DNA from: a virus
Strand: one strand, 5' to 3'
DNA length: 64,000 bases
IMG/VR virus record: IMGVR_UViG_3300022910_000005
Location: 1-64,000 of that record
Position numbers and translations under genes: made by a program. Positions 7,816 to 63,600 of this stretch are shown here, piece after piece; position 1 is the first letter of the stretch, and each line of letters begins with the position of its first letter. The notes beneath the pieces are model-generated. The model had not been told where the DNA came from, made no database searches, and saw nothing but the letters and a program-made list of their open reading frames with translations.

Positions 7816-8043
7816 TCAGTCGAGGATCGTGCCGCTCCAACCGGCTCGGCGCAACTGTGCCCGCAGGTTCTTCTTCCAGCGCGCCCGGTCGCCGGGCGAG
7901 CAGGGGATCATGATGATCGGCCCGTTGTCCGGTGGGTAGACCTTGGTGTGCTTGCCGCCTTCGGCCTGGAGGCTGACCCGCCAGCCGGGTAGGGACGCCA
8001 GTTCCTTCTCCAGCGACTTGATGACCTTCTGCTCGGAACTCAT
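7816..8043 (-). CDS. HicA-like mRNA interferase family protein
   Basis: GW...GGKHTKVYPP.NG...IPCSPGD...NLRAQLRRAG pattern. Confidence 0.7.
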   Translation of the reverse strand: MSSEQKVIKSLEKELASLPGWRVSLQAEGGKHTKVYPPDNGPIIMIPCSPGDRARWKKNLRAQLRRAGWSGTILD

Positions 8044-8513
8044 CGACCTTCCTCTCGTTCGGCCGCACGCCGTAGGCGACGTTCTGCGGCTGCTGCGGCT
8101 CTCCGGGCACGATCGGCCCGTGCCTGGCTCAGTTCGGGCGCGAGCGGAGCGCTGGGGGCCGCTGGTGACCAGTCCTTGCCGTGGCCCTTCAACGCCGCCG
8201 CCCGCCGGTTGCAGCGTCCGCGATGCTCCGGCCCGCCGTACCGGCCGTCGTCCAGGTGACCGAGGTCCCACTCCTCGCCCGGCAGGATCAACCCACCGCA
8301 GCGCCAGCAGGTGACGAGCCCGGCCAGCACTGCCGGGGCCGCCTCCACTCGCGCGGCGACATGCTTCGCGTCGTACCCGCGCTCCTGCCGAGAGCCGCGC
8401 CGCGCTTCGTACGCCTGCGCGTGCGGCTCGCACCGGTTGCCGTTAGTTGCCGGGAAAGGACATCTGGAGTTGTCCGTCACTTTCTCCGCGCAGGTCCGCT
8501 TCGCTCTTGGCAT
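8040..8513 (-). CDS. HNH endonuclease (packaging-associated type)
   Basis: ERGYDAKH, CWRCG, WDLGH, PEH...CNR motifs. Confidence 0.85.
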   Translation of the reverse strand: MPRAKRTCAEKVTDNSRCPFPATNGNRCEPHAQAYEARRGSRQERGYDAKHVAARVEAAPAVLAGLVTCWRCGGLILPGEEWDLGHLDDGRYGGPEHRGRCNRRAAALKGHGKDWSPAAPSAPLAPELSQARADRARRAAAAAERRLRRAAEREEGR

Positions 8514-9006
8514 TCTTCACCGCCTTGTCCAACTGGCTCCAATTGCAATTCATGACCAGGCGGCGATTCTTCAGGATCATCCCGGAATCCCATCCGTTCT
8601 TCACCCAATGCCCGACGTACGTCATGTCGCCGTGCTGAATGACGACCCGGACGGAATCCACGGGGCCGACCCGTTCGCTGCCGACCTGTTTACGAGCAGC
8701 CTTTCCAGTGGGCGTCTCCTCGCCGGTCGGTTCCATGATCGCAACGCTCAACGGAAGCCCGGTCGACGGAGTGATGTCCTCACCGACGGCGTGCGTGATC
8801 CGAACGTTCGCGCGCATCTCGATCCCCAACGTTGCGAGACGGCGAGCGTTGGGCGGAACGATCGGAGCGTGGGCCGTCACCTCGATCGCTCGCTGCACCG
8901 GCTCCGGATGAACGATCGCAACGTACGTCGTCTTGCCCCACGTTCGACCGTCGACCGGAACGCTCTCCAACGTTGGGTCGAGGTGAGCGTTGTGATCGTC
9001 AGCCAC
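8443..9006 (-). CDS. hypothetical protein
   Basis: GTG at 9006 overlapping upstream stop; contains AACGTT cluster. Confidence 0.6.
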   Translation of the reverse strand: MADDHNAHLDPTLESVPVDGRTWGKTTYVAIVHPEPVQRAIEVTAHAPIVPPNARRLATLGIEMRANVRITHAVGEDITPSTGLPLSVAIMEPTGEETPTGKAARKQVGSERVGPVDSVRVVIQHGDMTYVGHWVKNGWDSGMILKNRRLVMNCNWSQLDKAVKNAKSEADLRGESDGQLQMSFPGN

Positions 9007-9403
9007 CGCAGAGCCTCCGGAACGAATCCATCGCAACGTTGTCGGGTCGAACGTTGAACTGGACGTGGGCCGGTGCGACGAACGTTCGGTTGAACCGGCT
9101 GCGGCTGTCCGTCTCACGGAAGTACTCGCCGATGTCAACGAACCGGCCAGCGTTGACGGCGTAGCGATGCGGTCCAGCCCGGCCGACGCGGTGACGGGCG
9201 GCGGCGCGCGCGACGAGGATCACCGGCCCTCGGCCCGGCTCGCCGTCCGCATCGTCCTCGATCACCCACCAGGCGGACATCCCGGCCAGGGGCTTGGCTA
9301 CCGCCCAGATCCGCCCGTAGCAGTCCGTCTCGTCGCCGTTGCCGTCGATGTCACGCCACGTAATGGACTTCGGCTCGCTTGCGGGGGGTTCTCTGGTTGC
9401 CAT
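8999..9403 (-). CDS. hypothetical protein (leaderless)
   Basis: minus-strand GTGACA-N18-TAGGAT promoter immediately upstream. Confidence 0.6.
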   Translation of the reverse strand: MATREPPASEPKSITWRDIDGNGDETDCYGRIWAVAKPLAGMSAWWVIEDDADGEPGRGPVILVARAAARHRVGRAGPHRYAVNAGRFVDIGEYFRETDSRSRFNRTFVAPAHVQFNVRPDNVAMDSFRRLCGG

Positions 9404-9536
9404 GTGTCACATCCTACTCCGGTTGACAACCGCTTGTCACCTGTCCCTTGTGTCCGATTCGCCCGGCTATGCCCCGACAATCCCGGCCAGTGATGCAGCC
9501 CACACTTCTCGTTGGCCGAATCGGGAACAAGATCCA

Positions 9537-9624
9537 CTGTCACAGGTGTCACAGGCAACTTATTAGTTTTCTAGCAGATTTTGCCTCGCAGGGAACGAAT
9601 CTAGAGCCTGTGACACCTGTGACA
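9537..9624. repeat. 88-bp origin-like element copy 1
   Basis: TGTCACAGGTGTCACAG / CTGTGACACCTGTGACA inverted arms around an AT-rich core; 5 mismatches to the copy at 45617. Confidence 0.9.
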
Positions 9625-9754
9625 CCCCAGGTCCAGGCTGTGTCACAGCCCCCGTAACCGAACCGATGCGGCACGCGCCCTTGAATGGCCGGGCTCTGTC
9701 AAGCGGTCGGTGTGACGCTTGCTGTGACACCCCTCGCCGAGGACAATTCGGCGC

Positions 9755-10045
9755 ATGAAGCAGCCGCGAGTGAATCCTCCTCGAACCCCGCTCACGTTCA
9801 CGCAGCGTGACTATGACCGTGCCGACATGGCCGGTCTGATGGTCCGCCTGGACGGCCGCCGGGCGGTCCTGGTGAACGAGGAAGGCTCCCACCACGACTA
9901 CCGGGTGGTGGGCGAACTGCGATCCAGTGCGCTGGCTGTGGTGGTGGACGTGGTGCGCGATGAGGCGTGGTGGCGGCACAAGCACCTGGCGATGCGCATG
10001 GAGCCCATCCGCTGGCCTGCCGCTGCCGTCTGGGTGGAGATGTAG
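9755..10045 (+). CDS. hypothetical protein
   Basis: GAGGA RBS and ORF. Confidence 0.5.
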   Translation: MKQPRVNPPRTPLTFTQRDYDRADMAGLMVRLDGRRAVLVNEEGSHHDYRVVGELRSSALAVVVDVVRDEAWWRHKHLAMRMEPIRWPAAAVWVEM

Positions 10046-10430
10046 GCACCCGGCCGCAGGTCGGGGGCCTGATGTCCGTAAACGGGCATACGGGCCGCCT
10101 GGATGTCCGGGAAGTGCCTGATGGTGGACATGAGGAGGGGCTCCGGGGAGGCATAAGCCGTCAACCCGGAGCCCCACGCGGTCCGTCCTGCACCTGCCGC
10201 AACGCCTCCGCCGACCCTGCACCCGGTGGAAACGCTCGCCATGCTTGAACTGAACCGCCTGTCGAGCGTACCAGCGATGTCAAGTTCTTGGTAACGCTGC
10301 TATCGGTTCAGCCCTACCCGGCGGCCGGGGGTGGCTCAGCCGAGAAGTGCGTAGGCGCAGGTCAGGAAACCGAGCGCGATCCCGATGCCCAGCCCGAGGC
10401 AGAAGCCGGTCCAGAAATCCTCCGGCGTGT

Positions 10431-10613
10431 TCACCAGATCCATCCGAGCCAGCGGTCCATGAGGTGCCAGCCGAACCACCAGGTGGGGACGGACACGGCC
10501 GCCCCGGCCTGAAGTCCGACGTACCAGAGCGCCAGCGTCTGCCAGGTCGCCCGCCCGCCTCGGTGCACGGCGGCCCGGGGTGGCGCGATGATCTCGTCGA
10601 AGGTGCTGGTCAC
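10431..10613 (-). CDS. small membrane protein
   Basis: hydrophobic Trp-rich ORF among several small TM ORFs (about 10336-10702). Confidence 0.5.
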   Translation of the reverse strand: MTSTFDEIIAPPRAAVHRGGRATWQTLALWYVGLQAGAAVSVPTWWFGWHLMDRWLGWIW

Positions 10614-10692
10614 AGGCCCTTCCTTCCGTTGATCAGCATGGCCAGCCCGGTCACACCGGAGCCGATCATGATCAGGACCAGCCAGATGACGT

Positions 10693-10968
10693 TCACGTCC
10701 ACGGTCCGTCCTCCTTCAGGTTGGGCGGGGTGAGGTTCAGGTAGATGTCCGACATGCCGTTCCTGCTGGTCAGGCGCAGGGCGTCTTGGCCGTTCAGCAG
10801 CAGCCGTTCGGCGGTGTGAGCCTGCTGGAGCGCTCCGAGCGCCTCGGAGAGGGTCCACATGCGCCGGGGGCCGCCGAGCCAGCCGGTGACGCTGTGGGCG
10901 GCGGTGGCCCACAGCAGCGGCTCGGCGTCCACCTTCCGCATGACGATCACGAAATCCTTGCGCTTCAT
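10693..10968 (-). CDS. hypothetical protein
   Basis: ATGA overlap with upstream gene. Confidence 0.55.
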   Translation of the reverse strand: MKRKDFVIVMRKVDAEPLLWATAAHSVTGWLGGPRRMWTLSEALGALQQAHTAERLLLNGQDALRLTSRNGMSDIYLNLTPPNLKEDGPWT

Positions 10969-11750
10969 GACCAGACCCGCTGGACGGACTTCAGTTCGGT
11001 CTGCCGCCCGTAGTGCTTGTGCTCGACGTGCGCGGCAACGACAGCGTTGACGGTGACCTCCTCGCCGAGTTCGACAACGTTGGCCCACGCGGCGCTGCTG
11101 GTCATCTTCAACGCTGACCCGTCGCTGGCCTCCAGGATCACCAGAACGTTCGGCTTCCGCTCGCCGTAGCGACTGGGCAGCGTTGCAACGTTCGTGACGC
11201 GACCGGCGAACGTTCCGCCCTCCCCAACGCTGCCGACGTAGGAACGTTGCGGCGTCTCGAACGCTTCGCTCAACGCTCGGTCCAGCAGGAGGCTGACGGC
11301 GTAACGTTCCTGCGTAACGTTGAGGGGCATCTGGATCGCACGCAGCGCCAGCGACAGCAGCGTCGGATCAACGTTGCGGTCGCTGCCGGAACGTACGACG
11401 GCCAGCAGGTAGGCCACATCAGGCACGCGGGCGGCCCATTCGTCGATGTCCGCGAGCCTTTCCAGTTCCTTCTTCTTGGCGTATGTCATGGGCGAGTTCT
11501 CGAATCGGATGCGCTTGCGCAGCACCTCCTTCATGCGGAATTCCGATCCGGCGAGCCGGAGGATTTCTGATCCACCGCAGCGCGGGCAGCGGTCATGGTC
11601 GATCCCCGGGCAGAATTCGTACCAGGCGTCGTTCTCGGCCTTCAGGAGGGTTTTACCGTTGACGTCGTAGGCGAGGTATTCCTGTCCGTTCATGGGCCAG
11701 CGGGGATCGTGAAGGAGGGTCGGGCTGATCGCGATGGTTGAGGTTGGCAT
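10965..11750 (-). CDS. phage protein with predicted C-terminal OB-fold (leaderless)
   Basis: YVGSVGE...SRYG...GEEVTVNAVV..H...GRQTEL pattern; promoter 11758-11786. Confidence 0.65.
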   Translation of the reverse strand: MPTSTIAISPTLLHDPRWPMNGQEYLAYDVNGKTLLKAENDAWYEFCPGIDHDRCPRCGGSEILRLAGSEFRMKEVLRKRIRFENSPMTYAKKKELERLADIDEWAARVPDVAYLLAVVRSGSDRNVDPTLLSLALRAIQMPLNVTQERYAVSLLLDRALSEAFETPQRSYVGSVGEGGTFAGRVTNVATLPSRYGERKPNVLVILEASDGSALKMTSSAAWANVVELGEEVTVNAVVAAHVEHKHYGRQTELKSVQRVWS

Positions 11751-16241: not shown

Positions 16242-16750
16242 TCCCCGTGGAGACCACCGTGGCAACGACGCCCGAAGTTCTCCAGGGGCCGTGGGAAGCG
16301 CTCGCCGAGCAGGTCGCCCGGCGGGCCCACGGCACCACCCGCAACAAGCATGACGGCACGCTCTACATCCTCCACCCGCAGTGGGTGGTCGAGTACCTGC
16401 GCCGCCGGGGATCGTCCGACATCCGCCTGGCCATCGCCTGGCTGCATGACGTGGTCGAGGACACCAGCCTGACCCTCGAAGATCTGTCCTGGATCTTCCC
16501 GATGATCATCGTTGAGGCGGTCGACGCGCTGACGCACCGGCCGGGCGAATCCCGCAAGGACTACTGCGCCCGGGTCGGGGCCGTCCTGGACGCGCTGATC
16601 GTGAAACTGGCTGACCTGCGCCACAACACGGACCGCTCCCGCCGGGAAGGACTGCCGCCCCTGGTGGTGACCCGGCTGGACCTGAAGTACACCGAAACGC
16701 ACCTGGAACTGAATCAATGGATCATCTACCACCTGGAGAACCCAGCATGA
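16238..16750 (+). CDS. HD-domain hydrolase (RelA/SpoT hydrolase-like, small alarmone hydrolase type)
   Basis: AH, YILHP, AWLHDVVEDT, VKLADLRHN motifs. Confidence 0.85.
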   Translation: MIPVETTVATTPEVLQGPWEALAEQVARRAHGTTRNKHDGTLYILHPQWVVEYLRRRGSSDIRLAIAWLHDVVEDTSLTLEDLSWIFPMIIVEAVDALTHRPGESRKDYCARVGAVLDALIVKLADLRHNTDRSRREGLPPLVVTRLDLKYTETHLELNQWIIYHLENPA

Positions 16751-21468: not shown

Positions 21469-23136
21469 GTGAGCCAGACGAAGATCACCGGCAGCCTCCG
21501 GCAGCAGGTGTTCGACATCCGGCAGAACCCGCGCAAGCCGTCCGAGTTCCGTTGCGACGGCTGCGGCAAGTACTTCGTGCGCACGGCGCTTCAGGTCGAC
21601 CACATCGTCCCGGAGGCGGACTCGCGCCCGGAGGACCGGCTGGACCCGGACAACCTCCAGTTGCTCTGCTACACCAAGGGCTCCACCCGCTGGAATTCCT
21701 GCCACAAGCGGAAGACCTACGAGGAGCATCGACGGCGTGCGGTCCGCAACCGGCCGAAGAAGGACTGGGGGCCGTTCTGGCGGCGGGCTGCCGTGTGCGG
21801 CCTGGTCTTCCCGGCCACCTGGAACTTCTGGGTCAACGGTCAGCAGGAGATGATCGACGACCTGGTGAACGGCGTGCTGATCGAGGCCACCCTCTTCTCC
21901 ACCTATTTGGTCCAGAAAGGTTGGCGGATGCGCCGCCCCCGGCGGATCATTTCGGCCGACCCGGAAATGCTCGACGAGCCCGGCCAGGAGGAGGCGATCG
22001 ACACGCAGCGGATCGTCGAAGCAGCCCGCGAGGTGATGGGCCTGAAGGGCAGCGTGACCGCCCGAGGTGGCCATGAATCGTTCGTGCTGTCCTACGCCGG
22101 AACAGGTTTCGCCGACCATGAGTCGGACAAGCGGTGGAGCCTCCAGGAGAAGATCACCGCGAAGATCGGCGACCGGTGGATCGTCGACTGGAACACGGCG
22201 GAGGACAAGGCCACGTTCACCCGCCGACCGCCGCTGCCGCGCAAGGTGCATCATCCGGGCCTGGACCCGAAGCGGAAGTGGCACGTCCTGCCCGTCGCTG
22301 ACGGGGCCGAGTTCGACCTGCTGGTGACGCCGCACATCCTGATGGCCGGGGAGACGATGTCCGGCAAGACGGCCATGATGCGGGCGATGCTGATCGCCGC
22401 CAGCCAGTCGGCCGCGACCAACGACAACGTCGAGATGAACCTGCTGGACCCGAAACAGATCGAGATGATCGGCTTCCAGGGCTGGCCGGGCGTGAAGAAG
22501 ATCGTCACCGACCCGCACGACCTGTGGGCCTTCGCGATCGGCATGAAAGCCGAGATGGACCGCCGGTACCGGGAAGTGAAGGCTGGCCGGGCGGTGATGT
22601 CCCAGTTCAAGAAGATCATTAACTTCTGGGACGAGCAGGAAGAGTTCTACAACGCCATGCTGGAGTTGTGGCAGAGCGGTGAGAAGGACGAGAACGGTGA
22701 GCCGTACAAGCGCTCCGGAGAACGGGTTCCGCGTGCAGTGCGGGCCGTGGCCAGCCTGCTGGCCATGTCCCGTCGGTGCGGCATCCACAACGTGATCGCC
22801 ACGCAGTCACCGGACGCGCTGATCTTCGGCAAGTCCGGCGTCCGCCAGAACATGCCCGGCCGGGCCAGCGTCGGCGCGATCGACGGCATCCGGGCGGGCT
22901 GGCTGTATGGCGACAGCAGTGTCGGCCGCGACATCCCCTCGAACCTGAAGGGTCGCGCGACGATTCAGATCGGCGACGGCAAGCCGTTCGAGGTGCAGAC
23001 CTTCTGGGTGCCGGACCCGTCCGACGGCGACGCGAACTACGACAACGACCAGGAAGACTGGGCGACCCTGCTGCGGCTGGGGATGCCCACCGAACAGTTG
23101 CCCGAGAAGTTCAATCACCTGCTGGAGGCGGCGTGA
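21469..23136 (+). CDS. HNH-TM-FtsK/SpoIIIE (TraB/TcpA-like) DNA translocase fusion
   Basis: CDGC..LQVDHIVP..DNLQLLC..CHKRKT (HNH); two hydrophobic segments; HILMAGETMSGKT, DPK, EMDRRY, WDE, IATQ (FtsK). Confidence 0.88.
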   Translation: MSQTKITGSLRQQVFDIRQNPRKPSEFRCDGCGKYFVRTALQVDHIVPEADSRPEDRLDPDNLQLLCYTKGSTRWNSCHKRKTYEEHRRRAVRNRPKKDWGPFWRRAAVCGLVFPATWNFWVNGQQEMIDDLVNGVLIEATLFSTYLVQKGWRMRRPRRIISADPEMLDEPGQEEAIDTQRIVEAAREVMGLKGSVTARGGHESFVLSYAGTGFADHESDKRWSLQEKITAKIGDRWIVDWNTAEDKATFTRRPPLPRKVHHPGLDPKRKWHVLPVADGAEFDLLVTPHILMAGETMSGKTAMMRAMLIAASQSAATNDNVEMNLLDPKQIEMIGFQGWPGVKKIVTDPHDLWAFAIGMKAEMDRRYREVKAGRAVMSQFKKIINFWDEQEEFYNAMLELWQSGEKDENGEPYKRSGERVPRAVRAVASLLAMSRRCGIHNVIATQSPDALIFGKSGVRQNMPGRASVGAIDGIRAGWLYGDSSVGRDIPSNLKGRATIQIGDGKPFEVQTFWVPDPSDGDANYDNDQEDWATLLRLGMPTEQLPEKFNHLLEAA

Positions 23137-42996: not shown

Positions 42997-45561
42997 TCAA
43001 TCCATCTCGTCCCGCTTGAACCGCAGGCCACGGAACACCCGGGCGCGCGCCGGGAGCGGCGGCTGGGCCGACGAGAACGTCACGTTGGGAGCCATCGGCG
43101 GCCGGGAGATGTCCGAGGAGGCCGTCCGCACCTGGCCCTCCGTCACCCCGGCCGAGCGGACCAGTTCATGCACCCGGAACCGGCCCAGGAACGTCTCGCT
43201 GCTCCACTTCGAGTGGTTCTGGGCTACCAGGAAGTTGACGAAGTCGGTGAACAGATCCTGCCGGGCGACCATGCCGTCTGGGTCCACCTCCAGCCGGTCC
43301 ACGAAGTAGGCCATGATCCGGTCCGCCTCCATCTGCCAGCCCTTCACCGCCTCGGACACCTCCAGCGGCCGACGCTCCACCTCCACCAGCATCGGGTCCG
43401 CGAAGTAACGCATCGCGCCCTCCACCAGCCAGGTGATGATCGCGTCATGCTGATCGTCGGTGTTGTCGCGGATGCGCCGCTTCAGCGTCGGATCGCCGAC
43501 CCGGTCGTTCTCGGCCTCCGGCTTCTCCTTGAAGGTGTACGGGAAGTCCACCAGCAGCAGCCGACGCCATGTGCCCCAGTCCACTTCGGCCACCGACGGC
43601 TTCGAGTTGGACGTCACGAACATGCTGTGGCTGGCCGGGAAGGTGATCGGGTTCTGGTGCAGCATCCGGGCCGTGATGTAGCCGGTGTCGGTGATCCGCT
43701 TGATCTCCTCCACCGAAAGCGCGTGCGACTCAGGCAGTTCCTCGATCAGCGCGAACCGAACGCCCCGCAGGCTGGCCCGGTCCGGCGTCGCTCCGGTGCC
43801 CTGGCCCTTGGAGATCAGCGTCGGCTGGGCCATGTGCGCGTAGTCGCCGAGCGCCGGGAAGACGCCCTCCGTGGTGTACGCGGACTTTCCGTTGTTGCCG
43901 GTGCCGACCAGGAAGATCGCGTCCTTGGCGTTGTGGCCGGTGGCCGCCTGCCCCATCCGGATCTGCATGTAGTCGGCCTGCTCCGGCGGCAGGGCCATCA
44001 GCGCCTTGTCCCAGTCCGGATGCCGGAAGCCCTGCCGGTAGCGGCCGTTCGTGACCTTGGTGAAGTACAGGTCCGGGTCATGCTTGGAGAACTTGCCGGT
44101 CCGCAGGTCGACCACGAAGTTCGGCGTGTTCAGCAGTTCGGCGTGCGCGTCCAACTGCGCCGGGTCGGCGAACACGCCGTCGATGATCGCCAGGGTGTTG
44201 CGGATCGCGTTCATCTTGGAACGGGCCTGGAACGAGCGGTACGCCTTGGCCAACTTCAGGTACTTGTCGTCCTCGGTCTTCTTGAACTTGTCGACCATCG
44301 CCCGGAACTGCTTGGTGTAGAAGCGGGCGATCATGTTGTCGATGGCGTCCTCAGAGACTGGTGCCCACCGGCAGCCGTCCCAGCGGTGCCAGCCGACGCC
44401 GTCGGCGTGCAGCACCCGGGTGCCCATCTTCTCGGCCAGGTGCTGCGCCTGCCCGACGTCCGTGGCCCAGTCGGACAGGGCCTGCGACTCCTTGTCCTCC
44501 GGCACCGGGGGAGCACCGAGCGGCTGTGTGCCCTCAGGAGCCTCCAGATCCTCAGGCGTGACCATCTGCTCGGGATCGGCCACGATCGTCGCGTAGGCGG
44601 ACGTCCCGGCGGCCTGGGCGGGCACCGCGACGGCGGCGCTCGCGGACTTCGTGGGAGCGCCAGGGTTGATCGGCTTCTCCCAGGCCCGCTTGTTGGCCAT
44701 GCCGTCCTTCACTCCCCTGATGATCGTCGAGTTCATCGACGTCATGTCCGCGTTGCTGCGGAACGTCCAGCCAGCGATGGCGTCCAGCAGGCGGCCGATC
44801 ACCTCGTCCTCGTCCAACTGCCCGGCCCCGACGTACTGCCCGCACCAGAAGGCGATCCGGCTGGCCGTCGCGTTCCCCTGCCCGTCCGGGGCCGCCTCCA
44901 ACTGCCCGGCCAGGTCTTCGAGCCGGTCGAGCACCTCCTGCTCGGCCGCGATCGGGCCGGACTGCACCCGCTCCGGCCGCTGGACGTCCTTGCACATCTC
45001 GATCAGGTGCTCCGGCAGGTACATGAACGGCATGTCCTTGAACAGCCGGTACTGGCCGGTGCGGGGAAGGCCGGTCTTCGGGCTGATCTCCGTCACGACG
45101 GACGGCGGGGCGATCACGTAACCGTTGCCCCGGGTGTCCACGTCCGGGCCGATGCCACGCCCGGCCGCCCGGCCGCTGGTGTTGCGCAACTGCATCCCTT
45201 CCGGCATCAGGTACCAGAAGTGCAGGCCGCCGGTCCAGGACTGGACGGTGTACGTGTCGACGAAGCCGTGCTCGCCGCAGATCTTCGCCCAGGTCTCGCC
45301 GCCGACCTTGCCCTTCTCCTGGTCGGTGTCCACGTCGACCATGTAGAGCCCGGACGCGGCGGCCGAGACGCCGACGTTGGCGTAGGTGGCGTCTCTCCAC
45401 ATCCGTTCGATGATCGCCGGGTCGCTGGTCGCTTCCAGGTGGCCGTTCGATCCGTTGAGCGGGGCCTTGCTACGCGGAGTGAGCGGGAAGACCTTCAACC
45501 CCCGGCCAGCCAGGTCCAGGGCGGCCTTCTTGGTGTCTCCAGCGTCAAGTTGATAGTTCAA
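42997..45561 (-). CDS. bifunctional Prim-Pol / D5-P4-type SF3 primase-helicase
   Basis: VFPL..K.P, ANVG, VDVD, GGLH, DTRG.GYVIAPPS; LNTPN..VDLRTG; GTGNNGKS; WRRL. Confidence 0.92.
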   Translation of the reverse strand: MNYQLDAGDTKKAALDLAGRGLKVFPLTPRSKAPLNGSNGHLEATSDPAIIERMWRDATYANVGVSAAASGLYMVDVDTDQEKGKVGGETWAKICGEHGFVDTYTVQSWTGGLHFWYLMPEGMQLRNTSGRAAGRGIGPDVDTRGNGYVIAPPSVVTEISPKTGLPRTGQYRLFKDMPFMYLPEHLIEMCKDVQRPERVQSGPIAAEQEVLDRLEDLAGQLEAAPDGQGNATASRIAFWCGQYVGAGQLDEDEVIGRLLDAIAGWTFRSNADMTSMNSTIIRGVKDGMANKRAWEKPINPGAPTKSASAAVAVPAQAAGTSAYATIVADPEQMVTPEDLEAPEGTQPLGAPPVPEDKESQALSDWATDVGQAQHLAEKMGTRVLHADGVGWHRWDGCRWAPVSEDAIDNMIARFYTKQFRAMVDKFKKTEDDKYLKLAKAYRSFQARSKMNAIRNTLAIIDGVFADPAQLDAHAELLNTPNFVVDLRTGKFSKHDPDLYFTKVTNGRYRQGFRHPDWDKALMALPPEQADYMQIRMGQAATGHNAKDAIFLVGTGNNGKSAYTTEGVFPALGDYAHMAQPTLISKGQGTGATPDRASLRGVRFALIEELPESHALSVEEIKRITDTGYITARMLHQNPITFPASHSMFVTSNSKPSVAEVDWGTWRRLLLVDFPYTFKEKPEAENDRVGDPTLKRRIRDNTDDQHDAIITWLVEGAMRYFADPMLVEVERRPLEVSEAVKGWQMEADRIMAYFVDRLEVDPDGMVARQDLFTDFVNFLVAQNHSKWSSETFLGRFRVHELVRSAGVTEGQVRTASSDISRPPMAPNVTFSSAQPPLPARARVFRGLRFKRDEMD

Positions 45562-45616: not shown

Positions 45617-45705
45617 CTGTCACAGGTGTCACAGCCAACTTATTGATTTTCTAGAGGATTTTGCCTCGCAGGGAACGAATCTAGAGCCTGTGACACCTGT
45701 GACAG
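45617..45705. repeat. 88-bp origin-like element copy 2, directly upstream of the primase-helicase
   Basis: same orientation as 9537-9624. Confidence 0.9.
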
Positions 45706-49946: not shown

Positions 49947-52633
49947 TGGGCCTGTTCGCCGCCCCCAAGAAGACGACCTGGACGACACCGGTCCGCAAGA
50001 CGATCGCTCTCGCGCCGACGGCCAAGCAGGTGGTGCGCAACCTGATCCTGCTGAAGGACGGCAGCGTGCTGGCCGGTTACCGGATCGGCGACGCACGCTG
50101 GGACTTCACCGGCAAGGACGCGAAGATCATGCGGATGGACCAGGACGCGGACGTGTTCGCCGCGCTGGTCGGCCGGTCCTACCACGAGCGGGTCACCACC
50201 CGCCCGCACCCGGTCGCGACCTGGGCCGGGAACCTCGACAAGCGGACGCCACGCCCGACGCCCGACATCCACACCTGCGACCTGAGCGCGGGCCTTTCCC
50301 AGGGCGACCTGCTGAACGGCCGGTGCGGCTGCGAGACGTGGGGCCGTCACCTGATCCGCCAGCAGGACGTCATCGCCCGTTCCGGCATGAACGACAAGAT
50401 CGTCTTCCGCTACTTCGGCCTGACCGTGAAGGTGTCGCCGCGCACCGACCTTCGCAAGCAGATCAACGAGTTCGTGAAGACCGGCAAGGCGTCCGGCGTC
50501 GTGGCTCGGCTGATCGCCGACGAGAAGCGCGTCAGCGACATCGTGACCGGCTGGCCGGGCTCCAAGCGGATGAGCGAGTACGAGCAGGGCTGGCTGCGGG
50601 TCCGCTCGCTGTCGCCCGGCGTCATCCCCACCGGCATCCACAGCAAGGACCGGGGCGGCTGGGACGAACTGGCCCTGCCTGCCCTCGCGTCCGACACCCG
50701 GTGGGCCGAGACGCCTTTCGGCCGGACCGTGACCGTCACCTCGTTCGCCGACGGCAAGCAGGTCGAGTCGGCCGTGCGCGTGCTGACGATGGCGCGGATG
50801 GCCGACCTGAACTACCCGGAGAACGGGATGCCGCCGTGGCAGGTGCACGGCGAGTCCGTCCTGGACGCTTCCGGCCGCCCGTTCCCGGTGGAGTGGTCGG
50901 TCGTCGGCCGTCTGCGCTCCGGCGAGGAACTGGCCAAGGAGGTGGAATTCGAACTGCGGCGCGTCCAGCACGTCAAGGGCGACTACGAGGATCACAGCGA
51001 ACTGCCGCCGTCGAACGTCGGCAAGGCCATCGCCGTCGCCGTCGACACCCGCGACCAGGTCACCACCGGCCAGGCTGCTGTCGCCGCCAGGTTCCAGGGA
51101 CAGATCAACGTGATCATCTCCGGCCAGGCGACCGAGAACCTCACCGCCGAGCAGGTGGTCGAGGAGCGGTGCGCCGCGTTCACCCGGATGTACGCCAACG
51201 CTGGCCTGCGGATGGACTTCACCGGCTCCGACAGCCAGTCGTTCATGCTGGCCAGCACGGTGCCCGGTGAGCCGTACGACCGGCTCGGCTTCCAGCGTCG
51301 CCTGCGGCTGCCGTTCCTGACGGCCGGGATGCCGAACGTCTCCTCGTCCGTCGGTGACGGCGTCGGCCCGTACCTGGGCCACACCCGGGGAGCGACCCGG
51401 CGCGCGGTGCAGCACGACCCGCACTTCGCCACGGAAGGTCTGCGGACCGGCCGGGGCCAGAACATGCACGTCGTGCTCGGCACGCTCGGTGCCGGGAAGT
51501 CCGTCGTGACCGGCTCCATCGGCTACAACGCCGTCCGCCGGGGCATCCGCACGGTCATCTCCGACCCGTCCGGCCCGCTCGCGGCGCTGACGAAAATGCC
51601 GGAGATCGCGGACGTTTCGCAGGAGATCAACCTGCTGAACGGCGCGCGGGGCATCCTGTCCCCGGCCGCACTGATCCGCGACCCGCTGCTGACCGAGTAC
51701 GACGAGCCCGGCCAGTTCGCGGAGGCCCTGGGCCAGGCGGCGGCCGAGCGGCGGGACCTGATGGTCGACATGGCCAAGCGCTGCCTGCCGGACTACCTGA
51801 TGAAGGACCAGGCCGAAGCCCGCACGGAGGCGGCCCTGCGCCTGGCCGCTCGCCAGCACGCCGAGACGCGGGACGGCTGGAAGCAGACCGACACCATGTG
51901 GGACCTGATGCGTCCGCTGAAGGACAGCACCGACGACTGGGCGAAGGCCGTCCACGGTGCGCTGACGGACGCCTCCACCGCTCCGCTGCTGCGCCTCATG
52001 TTCCCGGAGCCGGGCGCTCCCGGCAGCATCGGGCACTACGACAAGACGCTCACGGTGATCACTACCCCTGGCATCGTGCGGGCCGTGGACGGCACGCCGC
52101 GCAAGGACTGGAACCCGCTGGAGGTCGGGGCCGACGTGGTGCTGCGCCTGGTCGGACTGTTCACCGACCGGCTGATCTACTCGAAGACCCGCAGCGAACG
52201 CTGCATCGCGATCTTCGACGAGGCCGAGTCGCTGACGGACTTCGGGCCGGGCCGGTCCATGCTGTCCCGGCTGGGCCGCGACCACTCCAAGTGGAACATC
52301 GCCGTCTACCTGGCCGTGAAAAGCATCAACCCGCAGATGCTTTCGGGGGAGTTGAAGAACTTCCTCGCCAGCGTGTTCGTCGGCCGGATGGCATCGCGCG
52401 AACCGGCCGAGGCCGCGCTGGAACTGCTGGGGCTGACCGACAAGCGGTACGCGCAGGTGCTCATGGGCCTGTCCACGTACGTGCCCGGCGAGTTCGTCCA
52501 CGCCGACGTGGCCGGGAACGTGGGGATGCTGAAGGTCGACGTGGACTACCACCCGGCCCTGAAGGACGCACTGCTGACCGACCCGACTCCGGAAGGCTCC
52601 GGCCACTGGACCCTTGAAGAGGAGATCGCCTGA
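49946..52633 (+). CDS. VirB4-like conjugative ATPase
   Basis: 895 aa; C-terminal GTLGAGKS, ISDPSG, IFDEAE, R.GR motifs; GPYLG upstream of the P-loop. Confidence 0.82.
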   Translation: MGLFAAPKKTTWTTPVRKTIALAPTAKQVVRNLILLKDGSVLAGYRIGDARWDFTGKDAKIMRMDQDADVFAALVGRSYHERVTTRPHPVATWAGNLDKRTPRPTPDIHTCDLSAGLSQGDLLNGRCGCETWGRHLIRQQDVIARSGMNDKIVFRYFGLTVKVSPRTDLRKQINEFVKTGKASGVVARLIADEKRVSDIVTGWPGSKRMSEYEQGWLRVRSLSPGVIPTGIHSKDRGGWDELALPALASDTRWAETPFGRTVTVTSFADGKQVESAVRVLTMARMADLNYPENGMPPWQVHGESVLDASGRPFPVEWSVVGRLRSGEELAKEVEFELRRVQHVKGDYEDHSELPPSNVGKAIAVAVDTRDQVTTGQAAVAARFQGQINVIISGQATENLTAEQVVEERCAAFTRMYANAGLRMDFTGSDSQSFMLASTVPGEPYDRLGFQRRLRLPFLTAGMPNVSSSVGDGVGPYLGHTRGATRRAVQHDPHFATEGLRTGRGQNMHVVLGTLGAGKSVVTGSIGYNAVRRGIRTVISDPSGPLAALTKMPEIADVSQEINLLNGARGILSPAALIRDPLLTEYDEPGQFAEALGQAAAERRDLMVDMAKRCLPDYLMKDQAEARTEAALRLAARQHAETRDGWKQTDTMWDLMRPLKDSTDDWAKAVHGALTDASTAPLLRLMFPEPGAPGSIGHYDKTLTVITTPGIVRAVDGTPRKDWNPLEVGADVVLRLVGLFTDRLIYSKTRSERCIAIFDEAESLTDFGPGRSMLSRLGRDHSKWNIAVYLAVKSINPQMLSGELKNFLASVFVGRMASREPAEAALELLGLTDKRYAQVLMGLSTYVPGEFVHADVAGNVGMLKVDVDYHPALKDALLTDPTPEGSGHWTLEEEIA

Positions 52634-54429
52634 TGTTGAAGGGTTTTCACCGCTACGTGCGGCTGGCCCAGTTATCGGTGGTGCTGATGCTGGTGGCGTT
52701 CGCACTGATCATCCACGCCGCCTCGGCCCACGCTTCCGCCCCGGCCGGGATCGACGTGCCGGGCGTGGAGGTATGCCCGAAGGAGGCACCGTTCGCGCAG
52801 ACGCCGGAGTCCGGGCTGGCCGGGCTTCTCGGTGAGCGTCCGCTGAAGATCACCACCGACAACTCCCCCGATCACATCTGGACGACGGGCGGCTTCGCTG
52901 GCCTCCAGTCGAACACCTACGACCTCGGCTGTGGCATGAACCCCGGCAACTGGGTGAAAATCACCAGCGCGCACACCGGTTCGTCGATGAGCAACTTCTT
53001 CCTGTCGGCCGGGGACTCGATGGTGTCGCTGACGGACTCGATCGACCGGCGGGCGTGGCAGCCGCAGTGGCTGCTGTCGTTCCTGGACGACTTCATGTTC
53101 CGGGTGACGGGGATGACGAACACGCTCATCCTGCTGCCGTTCCTGGGCCTGGCGCTGGCGCTGGTCGGAGTGATCCTCGTCTGGAAGTCCAACGATGGTG
53201 ACTATGCCGCTGCCGCAACGAGTGTCGGCTGGATCTTCATCGTCCTTGCCATCACGTCGCTGCTGGTGACGACGCCGCTGATCGTCGCGAAGTTCGGCAC
53301 GAGCGTCGGCTCCACGTCGGTCGCGGTGCTGAACGGCGGCGCGAACGCCTCCGACGCCGTCACCAACCAGGTGGTCAAGAACGTCGAGTACCAGGGCTGG
53401 CTGCGTCGCAACTTCGGCCCGTCGGACACGGAGGTCGGCAAGAAGTACGGGCCGGAACTGCTGGCGGCCAGCCGGGTTTCGTGGGCGGAACTGGACAAGG
53501 TCAACGCCCTGCCCGCCGACAAGCAGTCGCAGGCGCGTTCCGATCTGACGGACGCGAAGGCGAAGAAGTTCAAGGACATCGCCGCGAAGGTGAAGGACGA
53601 AGACCCGACGGCCTACAAGTACCTGACCGGTGAGATCATCGGCACCCAGGAGAGCATCGTCGAGGTGATCTTCCTGTTCATGGCGTGCGCGCTGCGGATG
53701 ATGGTGGCGATCCTGATGATCGCCTGCGTGATCAGCCTGGCCCTGATCAGCATCCTGTGGGTGCTGCTGACGCCGGTCCTCATCCAGCCGCCGTTCAAGA
53801 TGCTGGACGGGCGCACACTCGGCACCGGCCTGCTGAACGGTTCGATGCGCGCCCTGCTGTACGTCGGCGAAGCGGCGCTCGGCGCATGGCTTTACGGCTT
53901 CTTCCTCCAGGCGTGCATGGCCCCGGGCCTGAACCTCTGGTGGTCGCTGCTGCTGCTGACGATCGGCACGCTGATCGCCTGGTTCATGATCGGCCCGTTC
54001 GGCAAGTTGATGGCGATCCTGTCGCTGGGCCGGGCCGACACCGGAGCCTCCTACGTCGGCAAGGCCGTGAAGGGCGCGCTGATGGCCTGGGGCGGCGGCC
54101 TGATCGCCGGGCTGGCGGCGGCGAAGTCGGTCAACGATCACGAGGACGAGGAGCGGGCGGCGGCCCCAGAGCGGCTGTCTGAGACGATCCAGCAGCCGCA
54201 GGTCGTGCACGCCACCGTCTACAACCCGTGGGAGCACCAGATGGACGACACGGTGCGCACCGAGCACTTCCCCGACGCAGACCGGACGCTGCCGACCGGC
54301 GGCACCCCGGAACTGCCGATGTACCGGCGCGGTGCCGAACCGGCCCCGCCGCCGGACGAGACCGCCAGCCCGTACGCCACGTACGAGCGGGAAAGTTCTT
54401 CTGATGACAACGAGGGAGCGCACCTGTGA
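52633..54429 (+). CDS. VirB6/TcpH-like polytopic membrane protein
   Basis: signal-like N-terminus, multiple TM segments, low-complexity C-terminal tail; follows VirB4. Confidence 0.7.
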   Translation: MLKGFHRYVRLAQLSVVLMLVAFALIIHAASAHASAPAGIDVPGVEVCPKEAPFAQTPESGLAGLLGERPLKITTDNSPDHIWTTGGFAGLQSNTYDLGCGMNPGNWVKITSAHTGSSMSNFFLSAGDSMVSLTDSIDRRAWQPQWLLSFLDDFMFRVTGMTNTLILLPFLGLALALVGVILVWKSNDGDYAAAATSVGWIFIVLAITSLLVTTPLIVAKFGTSVGSTSVAVLNGGANASDAVTNQVVKNVEYQGWLRRNFGPSDTEVGKKYGPELLAASRVSWAELDKVNALPADKQSQARSDLTDAKAKKFKDIAAKVKDEDPTAYKYLTGEIIGTQESIVEVIFLFMACALRMMVAILMIACVISLALISILWVLLTPVLIQPPFKMLDGRTLGTGLLNGSMRALLYVGEAALGAWLYGFFLQACMAPGLNLWWSLLLLTIGTLIAWFMIGPFGKLMAILSLGRADTGASYVGKAVKGALMAWGGGLIAGLAAAKSVNDHEDEERAAAPERLSETIQQPQVVHATVYNPWEHQMDDTVRTEHFPDADRTLPTGGTPELPMYRRGAEPAPPPDETASPYATYERESSSDDNEGAHL

Positions 54430-59507: not shown

Positions 59508-60619
59508 GTAATGGCCTCCTCGCACCGCAGGCGCGTGTGGTCGCCCTGCACGTTCACCAGCGGGATCGTTCCGCTGATCACCTTGTACCGGCCGTCGGTG
59601 GACGAACGGTTGTCGATCACGTTGATCACGTCGTAGATGTCGTGGCCGGGATGTCCACGGGTGAAGATCTCGACCTCCTGCTTCATTCCGCTGACGCGGG
59701 GCAGGGTTTCAGCAGCGATGGCGGCGGCCTGCACGTCGTTGACGATGATGTCGGACCAGACGCCGTACGGACGGCGGCCGAAAGGTCCGTCCGAATAGGT
59801 GGCACTGTTCGGGTCCGTGTCCCACAGTTCAGCGCGGATCGGCAGGTAGTCGGGATGCTGGCCGCGCACGATGACGCCGGAGTAGACCGCGTCCACCGGC
59901 CGGAACCTCCTGGACACATTCATCAGCACGCTGTGCAGACCGGTGGTGTACGTGACCCCGGTGTCCACTTCGGTGATCGGTTCGACGACCGCCTGCCCCA
60001 ACTGGTCGAAATAGCAGACGTACGAGGATGCTTCGCACAACGCACGGATCGCATCCCACGGCGACGTCAGCCGGTCGAACACCACCTCGGGCGTCACCCA
60101 CGCTGACGTGGTGACGCGGATGGCGACCGTCGGCATCCGGGCGGCGATGATCGCTGCGATGGCCGTGTGGATCGGCGTGCCGTCCTCCACCACCCACGGG
60201 TCCTCGAACCGCCTGCTGCGCAACGAGTCGACCCGGTCGAACCCCTTGATCTCCACGACGGTGCCGTCCGAGTGCGAACGCACCTCCGGCTCGCTGATCC
60301 CGAACACGCCCATCGGAACGTATTCGTAGCCGGACACTCCTTCGTCGTCGGTCACCCACAGACCGCGATAGATCTTCAGTTCCGTGCCTTTTGGCGTGAG
60401 CAGGTCGGTCGCCTTCGTGGGCGTCAGTTCGCCGTCCGCGTCGCTGATCGTGAAGTGGGCCTCCCGCCGCACCGCAACGTCGTCGATGCCGATGTAGCCG
60501 GAGATCAGCACGTCCAACGTTGTGATGAGCGTGTCCGCGTACAGCACGTCGATCTTCGTCGACCATCTCCGGGTGGAGTCGAGCAGCGCAAGGTCGAACG
60601 CCTTGCTGGTCCTCCACAC
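59504..60619 (-). CDS. minor tail / baseplate hub protein (DUF5047-like)
   Basis: VRR, LLTP.G.E...YRG, VPMGVF, YSGVIVRG, GPFGR motifs. Confidence 0.8.
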   Translation of the reverse strand: MWRTSKAFDLALLDSTRRWSTKIDVLYADTLITTLDVLISGYIGIDDVAVRREAHFTISDADGELTPTKATDLLTPKGTELKIYRGLWVTDDEGVSGYEYVPMGVFGISEPEVRSHSDGTVVEIKGFDRVDSLRSRRFEDPWVVEDGTPIHTAIAAIIAARMPTVAIRVTTSAWVTPEVVFDRLTSPWDAIRALCEASSYVCYFDQLGQAVVEPITEVDTGVTYTTGLHSVLMNVSRRFRPVDAVYSGVIVRGQHPDYLPIRAELWDTDPNSATYSDGPFGRRPYGVWSDIIVNDVQAAAIAAETLPRVSGMKQEVEIFTRGHPGHDIYDVINVIDNRSSTDGRYKVISGTIPLVNVQGDHTRLRCEEAIT

Positions 60620-63600
60620 TCACTGCCTCCCGAGCGTTGGGTCGATCTCGATGTAGTCGACAACGATGTTGCGATGCCGCTGTGCCTCAACGTTGTACTT
60701 GCGCCGGATCAGCCGAGCGAAAATGATCGCACCGACGGGACTCTGAAGGACGAACGTTGCCGTCCGATCCAGAACGCTCGTTGCGTATTCGATGTCGGCA
60801 GCCTTCACGAAGATGGTCAACGTTCCGGTGGCCGCCTGAAGTCCTTCAGTGTCAACGATCGGGTAGAAGCGTCCGGCCGGACGGTGAACGCTGGACGACT
60901 CGTCGTCCGTCCGATCGTGACCGACAACGTAGCCGTACAGTTCCGCTTCGTCAGCGCTGTCGCAATCGCGGATACCCCAACGTTCGGCCTCCAGGCTGAT
61001 CGTGGCCAGCGCTGACGAACCGCTCGACAGCGTGCTGCCCTGCCCCTGGTCGATGTCGGTGAACGCACGGTAGATCACGTCCTTGCCGAACGGCATCAGC
61101 CGGTCGTACGCGATGGCGATCTGGCGCAGGTTCGGCTTGATCCGCTCCAGGATCGTCGCGAACGTTGTCCCACCGTCATCGCTACGCTCCACCCGCAGCG
61201 TCTCGTTCTGAGCGAAACCTCCCGGCTGGTAAGCAACGACCCGGCCAGGGTGAAAAGACACGTACCCGACGTAGAACACCTCGGACGCTGCTGCCGTGCT
61301 CAGCACCTCCAGGACGACCCGGGCCAACACTGCGCCGACCGGAGCGACGTCCGTAACGTTCGCCTGAGCGTAGGCCGCGTTCGTTGCGTTGACCTGGCTG
61401 GACACCGTCGTTGAGATCAACGTTCCGGTGCCGTCGTCGTCGTCGTACCAGCGGATCGAAACGCGGGCCGCCCGCGTCGTTGTCGCTGCCCGGAACGACG
61501 CCATCAACGTATACGCTGTGCCTTCCTGCACCGGGAACGACAATGGTCGCAGCGGAGCCGGTTCGTCAGCGGTCGGCGGCGGCGGGTCGCCCACCACAGT
61601 GCGAGCGGCCATCGTCCCGGCCGCAACGCTGGTCATCTTGAATCCGATCAGCAGACCGGCCCCGGTGTCCTCGATCTGGTCGGCCAACGTAACGTTCGCG
61701 TCCGACTCCCAGCCGGTCGCACTGCCGTCCTGGTCGGCCGTCAGGAACGACGACTGGCCGGTCAGGTCCAGGCGAGCGCGCGGGACGCCAGACACAAAAT
61801 CGATTGAGTCCACCACCTCCACCAGCGGGCCGGACGGCGGCGTGACGAAGATGCTGAAGGACGAGTAGACCCAGTCGCTGGCGATGGCGGCCACACTCGT
61901 CGCCCGAACGTACGCCCGATACGAAACGTTGTTCGTCAGCGGCAGTTCGATGCGCGCTGACCTGGCGACACTGGAGCCGACCACGCCGGACGTCCACACC
62001 GCGCCGAGCGGGTCCGTCGGTGAGATGCCCGGCCCCTCCGGCACGATGCGGATCTCGTAGTCCCGTTGCGCGTCGAGGCTGGAGTACGTCCACTGCACCA
62101 GCGGCGTGCTCTCCTCGTACACCACGTTCGTCGGGTCGGTCACCACGACGATCGGGCTGGCCGCCGAGATGACGGTGCGCGGGCTCGTGAAGGCGCTGGA
62201 TGAGCCGCTGCTGGACACCACCTGGATCGCCCAGGTGTACGTGACGCCGTTCGTCCACTTGCTGGCCGGGAACGTCACCTGCGACGGGTTGTCCGGGTCC
62301 GTGGTGTTCGTGACCGTGCCGGACTGGAACGCTTGCGTCGTCGCGTTCCAGTACTCCGTCGTTCCACCGTTGACCCGCTTGAACACGTACCCGGCCTCGG
62401 CGTCGCCGGGCGCGATCGGGTTGTACGTCCAGGTGAACGTTCCGCCCAGCGCCAGGTTCAACTTCGCGCCGCTGGCCGGGCTCTCCAGGGTTGGCGTTGG
62501 TGGCGTCCGCACCAGCGTGGTGAGGATCGCCGAGTTCACCGTGTAGACCACGGGATTCGTGCCGGTGATGATCGTGTAGAGGTATGGGATCGTGTTCCGC
62601 TGCGGGTGCCGGGGCAGCGACACCTGCCCGTCCACCGTGGACGGGCTGCGGGCGATCAGCACCGACCAGGCTGACCAGGTCAGCAGCGAGCGGGTGAACT
62701 TGCTGTACCGCACGTCGCCGTCGCCCTGGTCGTGGAAGATCAGGTAGATGTCGTCGGTGACCGGGTCGCACGCCAGGGAGAGCCCGGCCAGTTGGGTGGT
62801 GCCGCCCGGGAGCGCCGGGGGTGAGCGGGTCACCGGGGCGGCCACGCCGTCCCATTCGACGACCGAGATGGAGTTCGCGTTCGCCGACCAGGCGAACATG
62901 TACCGCGCGCCGTCCCACACGCCGCACAGCGTCGTCTTCGGCACGCTGCCGGTCGCCAGGACCACCGGGGTTCCCCAGGTCCACACGCCGCCGCTGTAGG
63001 CCGCCCGGTTGAGCCGGATGCCGCCGGACGCGCCGTACAGGCCGGTCCCCAGGAACAGGTGAGGGGTCGCTGACGGGGTGATGCCGTCGCCCGTGTGCGC
63101 GAACTCCAGGCTGCCGAACTGGGTCGCCTCCAGGCCGCTGGACGGACCCATCGTCGTCGCGCCGACGCTCAGCACGCCCTTGTTGGAGATGTTGACCCGG
63201 GCCACCTGGCAGCCGCCGGTCGTGCCGATCGAGTAGCAGAGGAACGCCGTCCAACCGGTGCCGTTGCGGAAGGCGATCGGGTCCGAGTCGATTGCCAGGC
63301 GGCCACCGGCCGGGCTGATCTTCAGCGTCTTCCAGGACCAGCCGGGGATGTAGTTGCCGCTGGCCAGATCCTTCGCGCTGACGACGGTCGACGTGCCGCC
63401 CTGGAGCGTGGCCGTGTTGTTCGGGGCCTTCGTCGGCGTGCCCCGCGCGTAGATGATGACCTGCGGGTCCAGGTCGTACTGGACGAACGACAGGTGCGCG
63501 TAGCCGTCCTGGTCGACGTACATCGACGGGTTGGCCTTGTTCTGGCCGAGATTCAACTCGGACGTCGGACTCCAGTGCCAGGTGTTACCGGAGTCCCTGC

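Follow-up and report, generated by a model that had tools for sequence, protein, structure and literature searches.

The virus genome IMGVR_UViG_3300022910_000005 (80,684 bp, complete, 66.6% GC, 100% complete according to CheckV) carries three clusters of a short palindromic hexamer, AACGTT, and of its degenerate form, ARCGYT. The window referred to below is the whole stretch that was analysed, the first 64 kb of the 80,684-bp record, and all coordinates are window positions. The gene map, which comprises about 125 genes, is based on the G+C content of third codon positions (GC3). The clusters, referred to as arrays 1 to 3, and the genes that host them are as follows (lengths in amino acids, aa).

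8743–9154, array 1: 11 ARCGYT sites including 6 perfect AACGTT, at the 3' end of gene A and in the 5' half of gene B
11043–11375, array 2: 14 ARCGYT sites including 8 perfect AACGTT, in the 3' half of gene C
60516–62441, array 3: 18 ARCGYT sites including 11 perfect AACGTT, with a dense core at 60516–61166
8999–9403, minus strand, gene A (134 aa), with the array 1 sites 9035, 9050, 9081 and 9149 at its 3' end
8443–9006, minus strand, gene B (187 aa), whose 5' half hosts the rest of array 1
10965–11750, minus strand, gene C (about 261 aa), which hosts array 2
60620–63745, minus strand, minor tail protein gene (1041 aa), which hosts most of array 3

The GTG start of gene B overlaps the stop codon of gene A, and the dense core of array 3 extends from the 3' end of the tail gene into the beginning of the gene that follows. 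The original prediction, made from the letters of the DNA alone, placed the sites inside coding sequence, and this is backed by the frame plot and GC3 and by protein homologues. Homologues of the gene B and gene C proteins are found at 42–95% identity, and relatives of the tail gene at 46–79% identity. Gene C probably starts at 11750, given its alignment with homologues.

The 80,684-bp genome has 27 copies of AACGTT, all of them in the window, whereas dinucleotide shuffles give an expectation of 6.75 ± 2.5 copies, with a maximum of 12. Twenty-five of the 27 copies belong to the three arrays, all within minus-strand genes. The six perfect copies at 8803–9086 and eight at 11076–11375 that had been predicted are exact in both number and position, and a third group of 11 perfect copies lies at 60516–62441. 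Where a single copy outside the clusters had been reported (19881), there are actually two, at 19881 and 26960. In a local-clustering scan of all 2080 hexamers, only the TGTCAC and AACGTT families were strongly clustered, and ARCGYT reaches a density of at least four sites per 500 bp at only these three loci in the genome.

Several one-mismatch copies had been noted alongside the perfect ones, and they behave differently. AACGCT/AGCGTT is concentrated in the arrays, with 15 of its 41 genome-wide copies in arrays that cover 3.4–3.6% of the genome, as is AACGTA/TACGTT (6 of 9), and AACGAT/ATCGTT, also listed in the original prediction, is weakly enriched (4 of 28). No such concentration is seen for variants in which the central CG is altered or the outer A/T is changed differently. 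The motif is thus a degenerate, symmetric ARCGYT, with AACGTT as its best form and a preference for C or G on either flank; in 89% of symmetrised sites, a C or G precedes the motif. The sense strand carries both mixed forms, AGCGTT and AACGCT, about equally, so there is no strand asymmetry. A literature search for AACGTT as a phage, Streptomyces, operator or repressor site found nothing relevant.

The enrichment has its origin in the DNA rather than in the proteins encoded by it. The sites occur in all three reading frames, as Asn-Val (AAC GTT), as xxA ACG TTx and as xAA CGT Txx. When synonymous codons were permuted within each gene, a procedure that preserves both the protein and the gene's stock of rare codons, the observed AACGTT count was reached in 0 of 2000 shuffles for each of gene B, gene C and the tail gene. 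The signal therefore survives the amino-acid-preserving shuffles that had been named as capable of refuting it. The same procedure was applied to ARCGYT and to G1, a syntenic IMG/VR contig of 60,874 bp with 65–75% nucleotide identity where it can be aligned. For gene C and for the tail gene, none of 2000 shuffles of either phage reached the ARCGYT count, and for genes A and B at most 4 of 2000 did; the shuffle tests are significant in the G1 arrays too. The sites had also been expected to force atypical codons, and they do: GTT accounts for 5.5% of valine codons genome-wide, and 24 of the 102 GTT codons fall inside the arrays. The enrichment is, thus, independent of the encoded protein, and the array signal in places overrides both codon preference and the choice of amino acid.

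Two other origins for the clusters were considered and rejected. A purely mutational origin, in which AGCGCT decays to AACGTT, is contradicted by the lack of AGCGCT enrichment in the arrays, and such decay would not give clustering. A diversity-generating retroelement, suggested by the many AAC codons of array 3, was rejected by inspection, with no dedicated search for repeats or a reverse transcriptase, on the grounds that the arrays share the hexamer only and no longer template/variable repeat pair.

The sites also obey a spacing rule. A second ARCGYT is found 17 bp away from 12% of the sites and 34 bp away from 7%, as against about 1% at other distances. Exact 17-bp centre-to-centre pairs number eight, versus 1.1 expected when the sites are placed at random within the arrays (0/20000 permutations); the window contributes five of them and G1 three, so the register is seen independently in both genomes. 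A second peak lies at 33–35 bp. Array 2 illustrates both distances, with four consecutive sites at exactly 17 bp (11209–11265) and five sites spaced 33–35 bp apart (11043–11184). As 17 is not a multiple of three, the register is not due to a protein repeat or to codons. Of 20 partners at 17 bp, 16 are full palindromes, half-sites at the partner position remain at background level, and many array sites have no partner at this distance. The G1 pairs are mostly AACGCT-N11-AACGCT. A pattern scan of viral contigs for three sites in the 17-bp register returned 23 loci, and those outside G1 were set aside as unrelated tandem repeats or chance matches.

Comparisons with relatives show how the arrays evolve. 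Near-identical DNA is present in leaf-litter, rhizosphere and soil metagenomes from several studies; these comparisons were made with assembled contigs, which cannot reveal ends, nicks or expression. The arrays are not an assembly artefact, because the same sequence, including the sites, recurs in independent metagenome contigs. One such contig (L001), 96% identical and spanning 11176 down to 7934, keeps seven of the nine perfect sites that it covers. At 8969, it has AGCGCT in place of AACGTT, a symmetric double change that preserves the degenerate motif, and the same pair of changes is present in X2, a run from another sample. In L002 (92% identical), the site at 11076 is lost and an AACGTT occurs about 20 bp away, at a different codon. 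In L001, at its positions 2090–2110 (window 8985–9000), the start of gene B also carries 12 inserted bp and several substitutions; this is a small hypervariable spot inside array 1, beside the stop codon of gene A.

Scans of viral contigs with gene C, the primase, gene B and two alignments yielded G1 as the sole relative. Its ARCGYT density reaches at least four per 500 bp at three places only, and these are homologous to the three loci of the window.

52752–52992 of G1, array at the gene A/gene B junction, homologue of array 1
50021–50329 of G1, array in the 3' half of gene C, homologue of array 2
3' end of the G1 tail gene, array of 8 sites, homologue of array 3

Protein identity between the window and G1 has fallen to 41% for gene A, 48% for gene B and 33% for gene C, and most G1 sites occupy other alignment columns than the window sites. 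In the tail gene, which retains 80% amino-acid identity, there are 17 sites in the window and 8 in G1, with only 5 shared columns. At some of the window's tail-gene sites, G1 encodes the same amino acids with ordinary codons (AGT GTG versus AGC GTT), and at others the amino acid itself differs (Glu-Val versus Asn-Val). More distant relatives of the tail gene (46–51% amino-acid identity) have no array. Site density at each locus is thus conserved while individual sites turn over, which is the pattern expected of selection acting on a redundant array of binding sites.

We interpret the three clusters, with moderate confidence, as selected cis-acting arrays of a short symmetric DNA site that would be read by a dimeric protein binding double-stranded DNA. 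The idea of a cis-acting array overprinted on coding sequence, put forward in the original prediction, is well supported, given the use of all three reading frames, the survival of the enrichment in shuffles, the presence of arrays at the same three loci in G1 and the 17-bp register. The particular functions suggested with it fared unequally: a partition centromere and a clt-like locus are not supported, a packaging site is unlikely, and a site for a DNA-organising protein stays close to the best reading. The enrichment, its independence of the protein, the spacing rule and the retention of arrays at the three loci in G1, a diverged relative whose individual sites have turned over, are observed directly in the DNA. 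That a protein binds to the arrays, and what its complexes would do there, we infer from a particular combination of features: a full 6-bp palindrome, symmetric degeneracy, a fixed distance between neighbours and a conserved location point to a dimeric protein that packs cooperatively. Each dimer would read one palindrome, and dimers would assemble side by side to form a multi-copy nucleoprotein complex of 350–650 bp at each locus. The candidate binder may be one of the family-less phage proteins or a protein of the host.

The surroundings of arrays 1 and 2 bear on the possible function of such complexes. The features concerned are listed below.

9349–9729, intergenic, TGTCAC/GTGACA cluster between arrays 1 and 2
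9537–9624, AT-rich inverted-repeat element of 88 bp
9755–10045, well conserved gene of 96 aa, between arrays 1 and 2
42997–45561, minus strand, PrimPol-D5N helicase gene, part of the replication module
45617–45704, second copy of this element, near-identical, immediately upstream of the gene for the PrimPol-helicase

No hexamer of the genome is more clustered than TGTCAC/GTGACA. Both copies of the 88-bp element are conserved in G1 (16664–16748 and 52042–52126), and the element may be an origin or an operator of the PrimPol-helicase. The original prediction had two arrays on either side of an origin-like element, and arrays 1 and 2 do flank the 88-bp TGTCAC element at 9537–9624. Together they bracket a 1.9-kb segment that contains the TGTCAC cluster, the 96-aa gene and some non-coding DNA. 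The spot with the highest AT content in the region (9542–9581, 38% GC) is 390 bp from array 1 and 1.4 kb from array 2.

Other observations concern the same region. In three runs, contigs break exactly at 9537 and 9624, continuing into the flanks of the other copy of the element. In contigs of two samples, 10042 is joined to 10131, a natural deletion variant in which 88 bp of non-coding DNA between the 96-aa gene and the genes for small membrane proteins is skipped. Further along, downstream in the gene C operon, the segment 10330–10968 (minus strand) contains a 91-aa gene, with ATGA as its start-stop overlap, and three hydrophobic open reading frames (ORFs) of very small size; none of these has a family. 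G1 has an extra gene, L010 (50958–51413), that separates the gene C operon from the 96-aa gene and is missing from the corresponding place in the window; it is judged to be zinc-finger nuclease-like from the Cys and His motifs in its translation. The product of the 96-aa gene displays only a small beta-barrel resemblance in a protein atlas. No Rfam family and no tRNA were found in the region, and a promoter/terminator scan of it gave nothing useful.

Organisation of replication is the function of the arrays that we prefer, at roughly one chance in three. In this scheme, arrays 1 and 2 would bracket the origin, and the late region would have its own, distal site in array 3. The suggestion is based on the position of arrays 1 and 2 on either side of the TGTCAC/AT-rich origin-like element and on the precedent of SPP1 gp38, which binds repeats in gene 38 (oriL) and a second set of repeats among the late genes (oriR) (PMC6316719). 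At oriR, bound gp38 is thought to stall replication forks and to trigger the switch to concatemer synthesis (PMC6316719). The two systems have in common repeated sites within an early gene and a second set far off in the late or structural region. They differ in that the SPP1 sites are direct repeats beside an AT-rich unwinding element in the binder's own gene, whereas those described here are 6-bp palindromes in 11–18 copies per array, and only arrays 1 and 2 are near an AT-rich element. The lambda origin is another precedent, with four iterons of 18–19 bp in the linker region of the initiator's own gene, O. There too, an array lies within a gene and DNA and protein constraints are superimposed, but the sites of the present phage are far shorter and more numerous, lie over a structured OB domain and occur at three loci.

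A roadblock or silencing role on two minus-strand operons is equally conceivable. Promoter-like TTGACA...TTGTCA motifs are present at about 9440 and about 11800, and arrays 1 and 2 begin about 290 and 430 bp downstream of them, which is the basis for suggesting that bound complexes would obstruct or silence transcription there. The stoperators of cluster A mycobacteriophages are 13-bp asymmetric repressor sites, dispersed singly and oriented with transcription. They resemble the sites described here in that many of them lie inside transcribed and often coding regions of an actinophage, but differ from these dense palindrome arrays at three loci.

The host genes were examined as possible sources of a binder. 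The AF2 model of the gene C product (pLDDT 90.5) has a zinc-ribbon N-terminus with four cysteines, a helical middle and a C-terminal OB fold. This fold is matched equally well by the OB domains of RPA, SSB, tRNA synthetases and MCM-N (Z 8–9), and an assignment to MCM-N was rejected because the resemblance is no better than that to the SSB, RPA or tRNA-synthetase domains. Gene C belongs to an otherwise uncharacterised family with 43 representatives at 50% clustering, and a distant homologue is embedded in a 1435-aa protein with a type IB topoisomerase domain. Its product is probably a nucleic-acid-binding protein of replication or repair. The gene B product is an alpha/beta sandwich (best structural Z 6.5), for which neither the fold comparison nor a protein atlas search gave a convincing match. 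No iteron-type initiator or gp38-like protein was recognised in the phage, and the PrimPol-D5N helicase gene adjoins the other copy of the TGTCAC element, not an ARCGYT array.

Several points weigh against arrays bound by a dimeric protein, or against their link to an origin. The predicted OB fold of gene C is generic and typical of single-strand binders, so that this protein would not be an obvious reader of double-stranded palindromes, and gene B, with no clear fold match, does not look like a reader of double-stranded DNA either. Pfam and PHROG scans of about 80 predicted proteins returned only a weak MarR-like match. Six-frame hidden Markov model (HMM) searches of the whole genome gave no RHH_1, ParB_N or Sigma70_r2 domain; for RHH_1, ParB_N and the ParA-type AAA_31, this means no match at E ≤ 1, with controls positive in 11–14 of 14 genomes and known families covered. 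The 17-bp register is uneven, being clear in arrays 1 and 2 and not evident in array 3. Only one diverged relative, G1, provides DNA for comparison, and in near-identical variants, for which data are few, conservation at the motif positions is not visibly higher than around them. The association with the origin is loose: array 3 has neither the 88-bp element nor any of the 25 AT-richest spots nearby, and the second copy of the element, at 45617–45704, has no flanking array.

The left part of the virus genome contains short early genes on the plus strand, and a long structural operon on the minus strand runs from terminase-size genes (76.6–80.0 kb) down to 56.8 kb. Most of the phage's proteins have no Pfam or PHROG family. 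The six-frame searches of the whole genome found no tyrosine integrase, serine recombinase, ParA, ParB, sigma factor or methyltransferase (four common families of the latter were covered), and because of the absence of an integrase and of these other families the phage looks like a lytic tailed phage, although it carries an FtsK-like gene. No relative was found by DNA or protein in a public phage collection, nor in 185,579 species genomes with the two proteins that were tried. GC-rich palindromic hexamers are extremely avoided: GCCGGC is absent, versus 110–162 copies expected, and there are also no copies of CCGCGG, CTCGAG, CTGCAG, GGATCC, CAGCTG, GAGCTC, ACGCGT, CACGTG, AGGCCT or CCATGG. The list of absent hexamers in G1 is similar, but not identical. 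Missing GC-rich palindromic hexamers are the usual mark of restriction avoidance in phages of actinomycetes, and the pattern fits heavy restriction pressure. The virus is uncultured and actinophage-like, and its lineage is one of soil and leaf litter.

Two genes encoding HNH domains are relevant to the first alternatives.

8040–8513, minus strand, HNH endonuclease gene (157 aa), PHROG 1808, with blastn matches to mycobacteriophage HNH genes
21469–23136, FtsK-HNH fusion gene, in which Pfam detects FtsK_SpoIIIE and HNH domains only

The arrays could be cleavage or nicking zones of one of these nucleases, the 157-aa HNH protein or the HNH-FtsK fusion, at which a local break would start recombination-dependent replication or process the genome. 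The HNH gene is the last of an A-B-HNH operon and lies directly downstream of array 1; this operon, which carries the array, keeps its gene order in G1. A second HNH domain is encoded in fusion with the FtsK ATPase, and dimeric nucleases, including some of the HNH type, classically target palindromes of 6 bp. The 17-bp register, however, suggests cooperative binding rather than independent cutting, and the small HNH proteins of such siphophages usually assist the terminase. We consider this explanation unlikely.

The FtsK/SpoIIIE ATPase encoded by the genome also raises the possibility of DNA transfer, with the arrays serving as loading or accessory sites in a clt- or oriT-like locus of the FtsK-HNH translocase. 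In actinomycete mobile elements, clt loci are loading sites for FtsK-like proteins and sometimes overlap the 3' end of a gene, and TraM of the F plasmid binds arrays of a short GANTC motif at three sites, sbmA–C. A palindrome, however, gives a translocase no direction, and the known recognition sequences of TraB, FtsK and SpoIIIE are asymmetric 8-mers; in Streptomyces clt, those of TraB form direct repeats at or next to traB. The arrays differ from clt in being composed of a 6-bp palindrome, in occupying three loci and in their remoteness from the FtsK gene, from which they are 10 kb and 38 kb away. Pfam sees no gamma-type winged helix in the FtsK-HNH protein, and RHH_1 has no match in six frames. 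With a palindromic unit, a remote position and no gamma winged helix found by Pfam, the clt-like locus envisaged at the outset seems quite improbable.

The closest known anatomy is that of the packaging site of phage P1, and the resemblance is striking. P1 pac consists of seven TGATCA/G hexamers in two groups (four and three) inside pacA, flanking the cut site, and its function has been tested by synonymous recoding (PMC10028697). The hexamers, which the packaging enzyme binds, span about 161 bp in the packaging gene and depend on Dam methylation. Both systems thus have palindromic hexamers overprinted on coding sequence, in two groups flanking a central site. Unlike in P1, where the groups fit into about 160 bp, they are separated here by 1.9 kb and have 11–14 sites each, and a third array lies 50 kb away. 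The arrays are remote from the terminase-size genes, which occupy the far right of the genome, and the six-frame searches found no C5, N4/N6 or Dam-type methyltransferase in the phage. The end of the G1 contig, about 1.4 kb from the window's left end, suggests that position 1 is a real, fixed genome end rather than a point in a permuted genome cut near 9–11 kb; no terminal repeats, including terminal inverted repeats, were found at the genome ends. A packaging role, one of the functions offered in the original prediction, is therefore very unlikely for these arrays.

A short palindrome with a CG core is also typical of methyltransferase targets, and two of the clusters flank an origin-like element, so that the arrays could form a methylation-dependent control region in which clustered targets are read in the hemimethylated state. 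The GATC clusters at the E. coli oriC and the hexamers of P1 pac provide precedents for such control. The methyltransferase types just named were not found in the phage by the six-frame searches, and methylation alone would not predict the 17-bp register. This explanation is given a very low probability.

The signal might instead act in RNA. AACGUU would then be read in three minus-strand mRNAs by an RNA-binding protein or a sequence-specific RNase, one candidate being the gene C product acting on the mRNA that encodes it. The genes hosting the three arrays share one strand, and gene C encodes a zinc-ribbon and OB-fold protein of the single-strand-binder type. However, the chance of finding three arrays on one strand is about one in four, the motif and its variants are strand-symmetric (AGCGTT is about as frequent as AACGCT on the sense strand), and the change from AACGTT to AGCGCT in a relative is a symmetric double change. 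An RNA-level signal is highly unlikely.

The register recalls, in addition, a class of actinobacterial promoter recognised by extracytoplasmic function (ECF) sigma factors, GGAAC-N17-GTT: a pair of AACGTT sites at a distance of 17 bp reads AAC-N16-CGTT on either strand, with a -35/-10 geometry, and the arrays might consist of such promoters or of sigma decoys. The enrichment is nevertheless of full palindromes (16 of the 20 partners at 17 bp) and not of half-sites, many sites have no partner at all, and many of the G1 pairs, AACGCT-N11-AACGCT, would serve poorly as a -10 on one strand and as a -35 on the other. No Sigma70_r2 domain was found in the phage by the six-frame searches, and this explanation is extremely improbable. 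A plasmid-type partition centromere, parS- or parC-like, had also been proposed, and arrays of repeated short sites are typical of centromeres bound by ParB- or ParR-type proteins, but it is largely refuted, and its probability close to negligible, because the partner genes were not found (no ParB_N and no ParA-type ATPase, AAA_31, in six frames of the whole genome) and the phage, with the gene content of a tailed phage, has no integrase or other sign of a maintained prophage or plasmid.

Selected arrays of a symmetric site for a dimeric double-strand binder, therefore, remain our preferred reading. A more ambitious version of it, possible in our opinion but doubtful, would be a chromosome-organising system in which a small, family-less dimeric protein polymerises on 17-bp-phased palindromes within three genes, bracketing the origin-like element and marking the tail region, with rapid turnover of sites under selection for density and not for position. 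Such complexes could bridge the three loci, or could block forks and polymerases there, and might in this way set when one replication mode gives way to another or when early expression gives way to late. Binding-site arrays inside genes are, as such, a known kind of element.

These arrays represent a clear case of dual coding, in which a signal is kept at three loci while the host proteins have fallen to 33–48% identity. They could be used as bait for the binder, which would make a lineage in which nearly all proteins are family-less accessible to experimental testing. Should the arrays organise replication or expression, hidden signals in such phages could be broken by synonymous recoding, and scanning genes for clusters of k-mers could then bring to light cis-elements that are overlooked when intergenic DNA is scanned.

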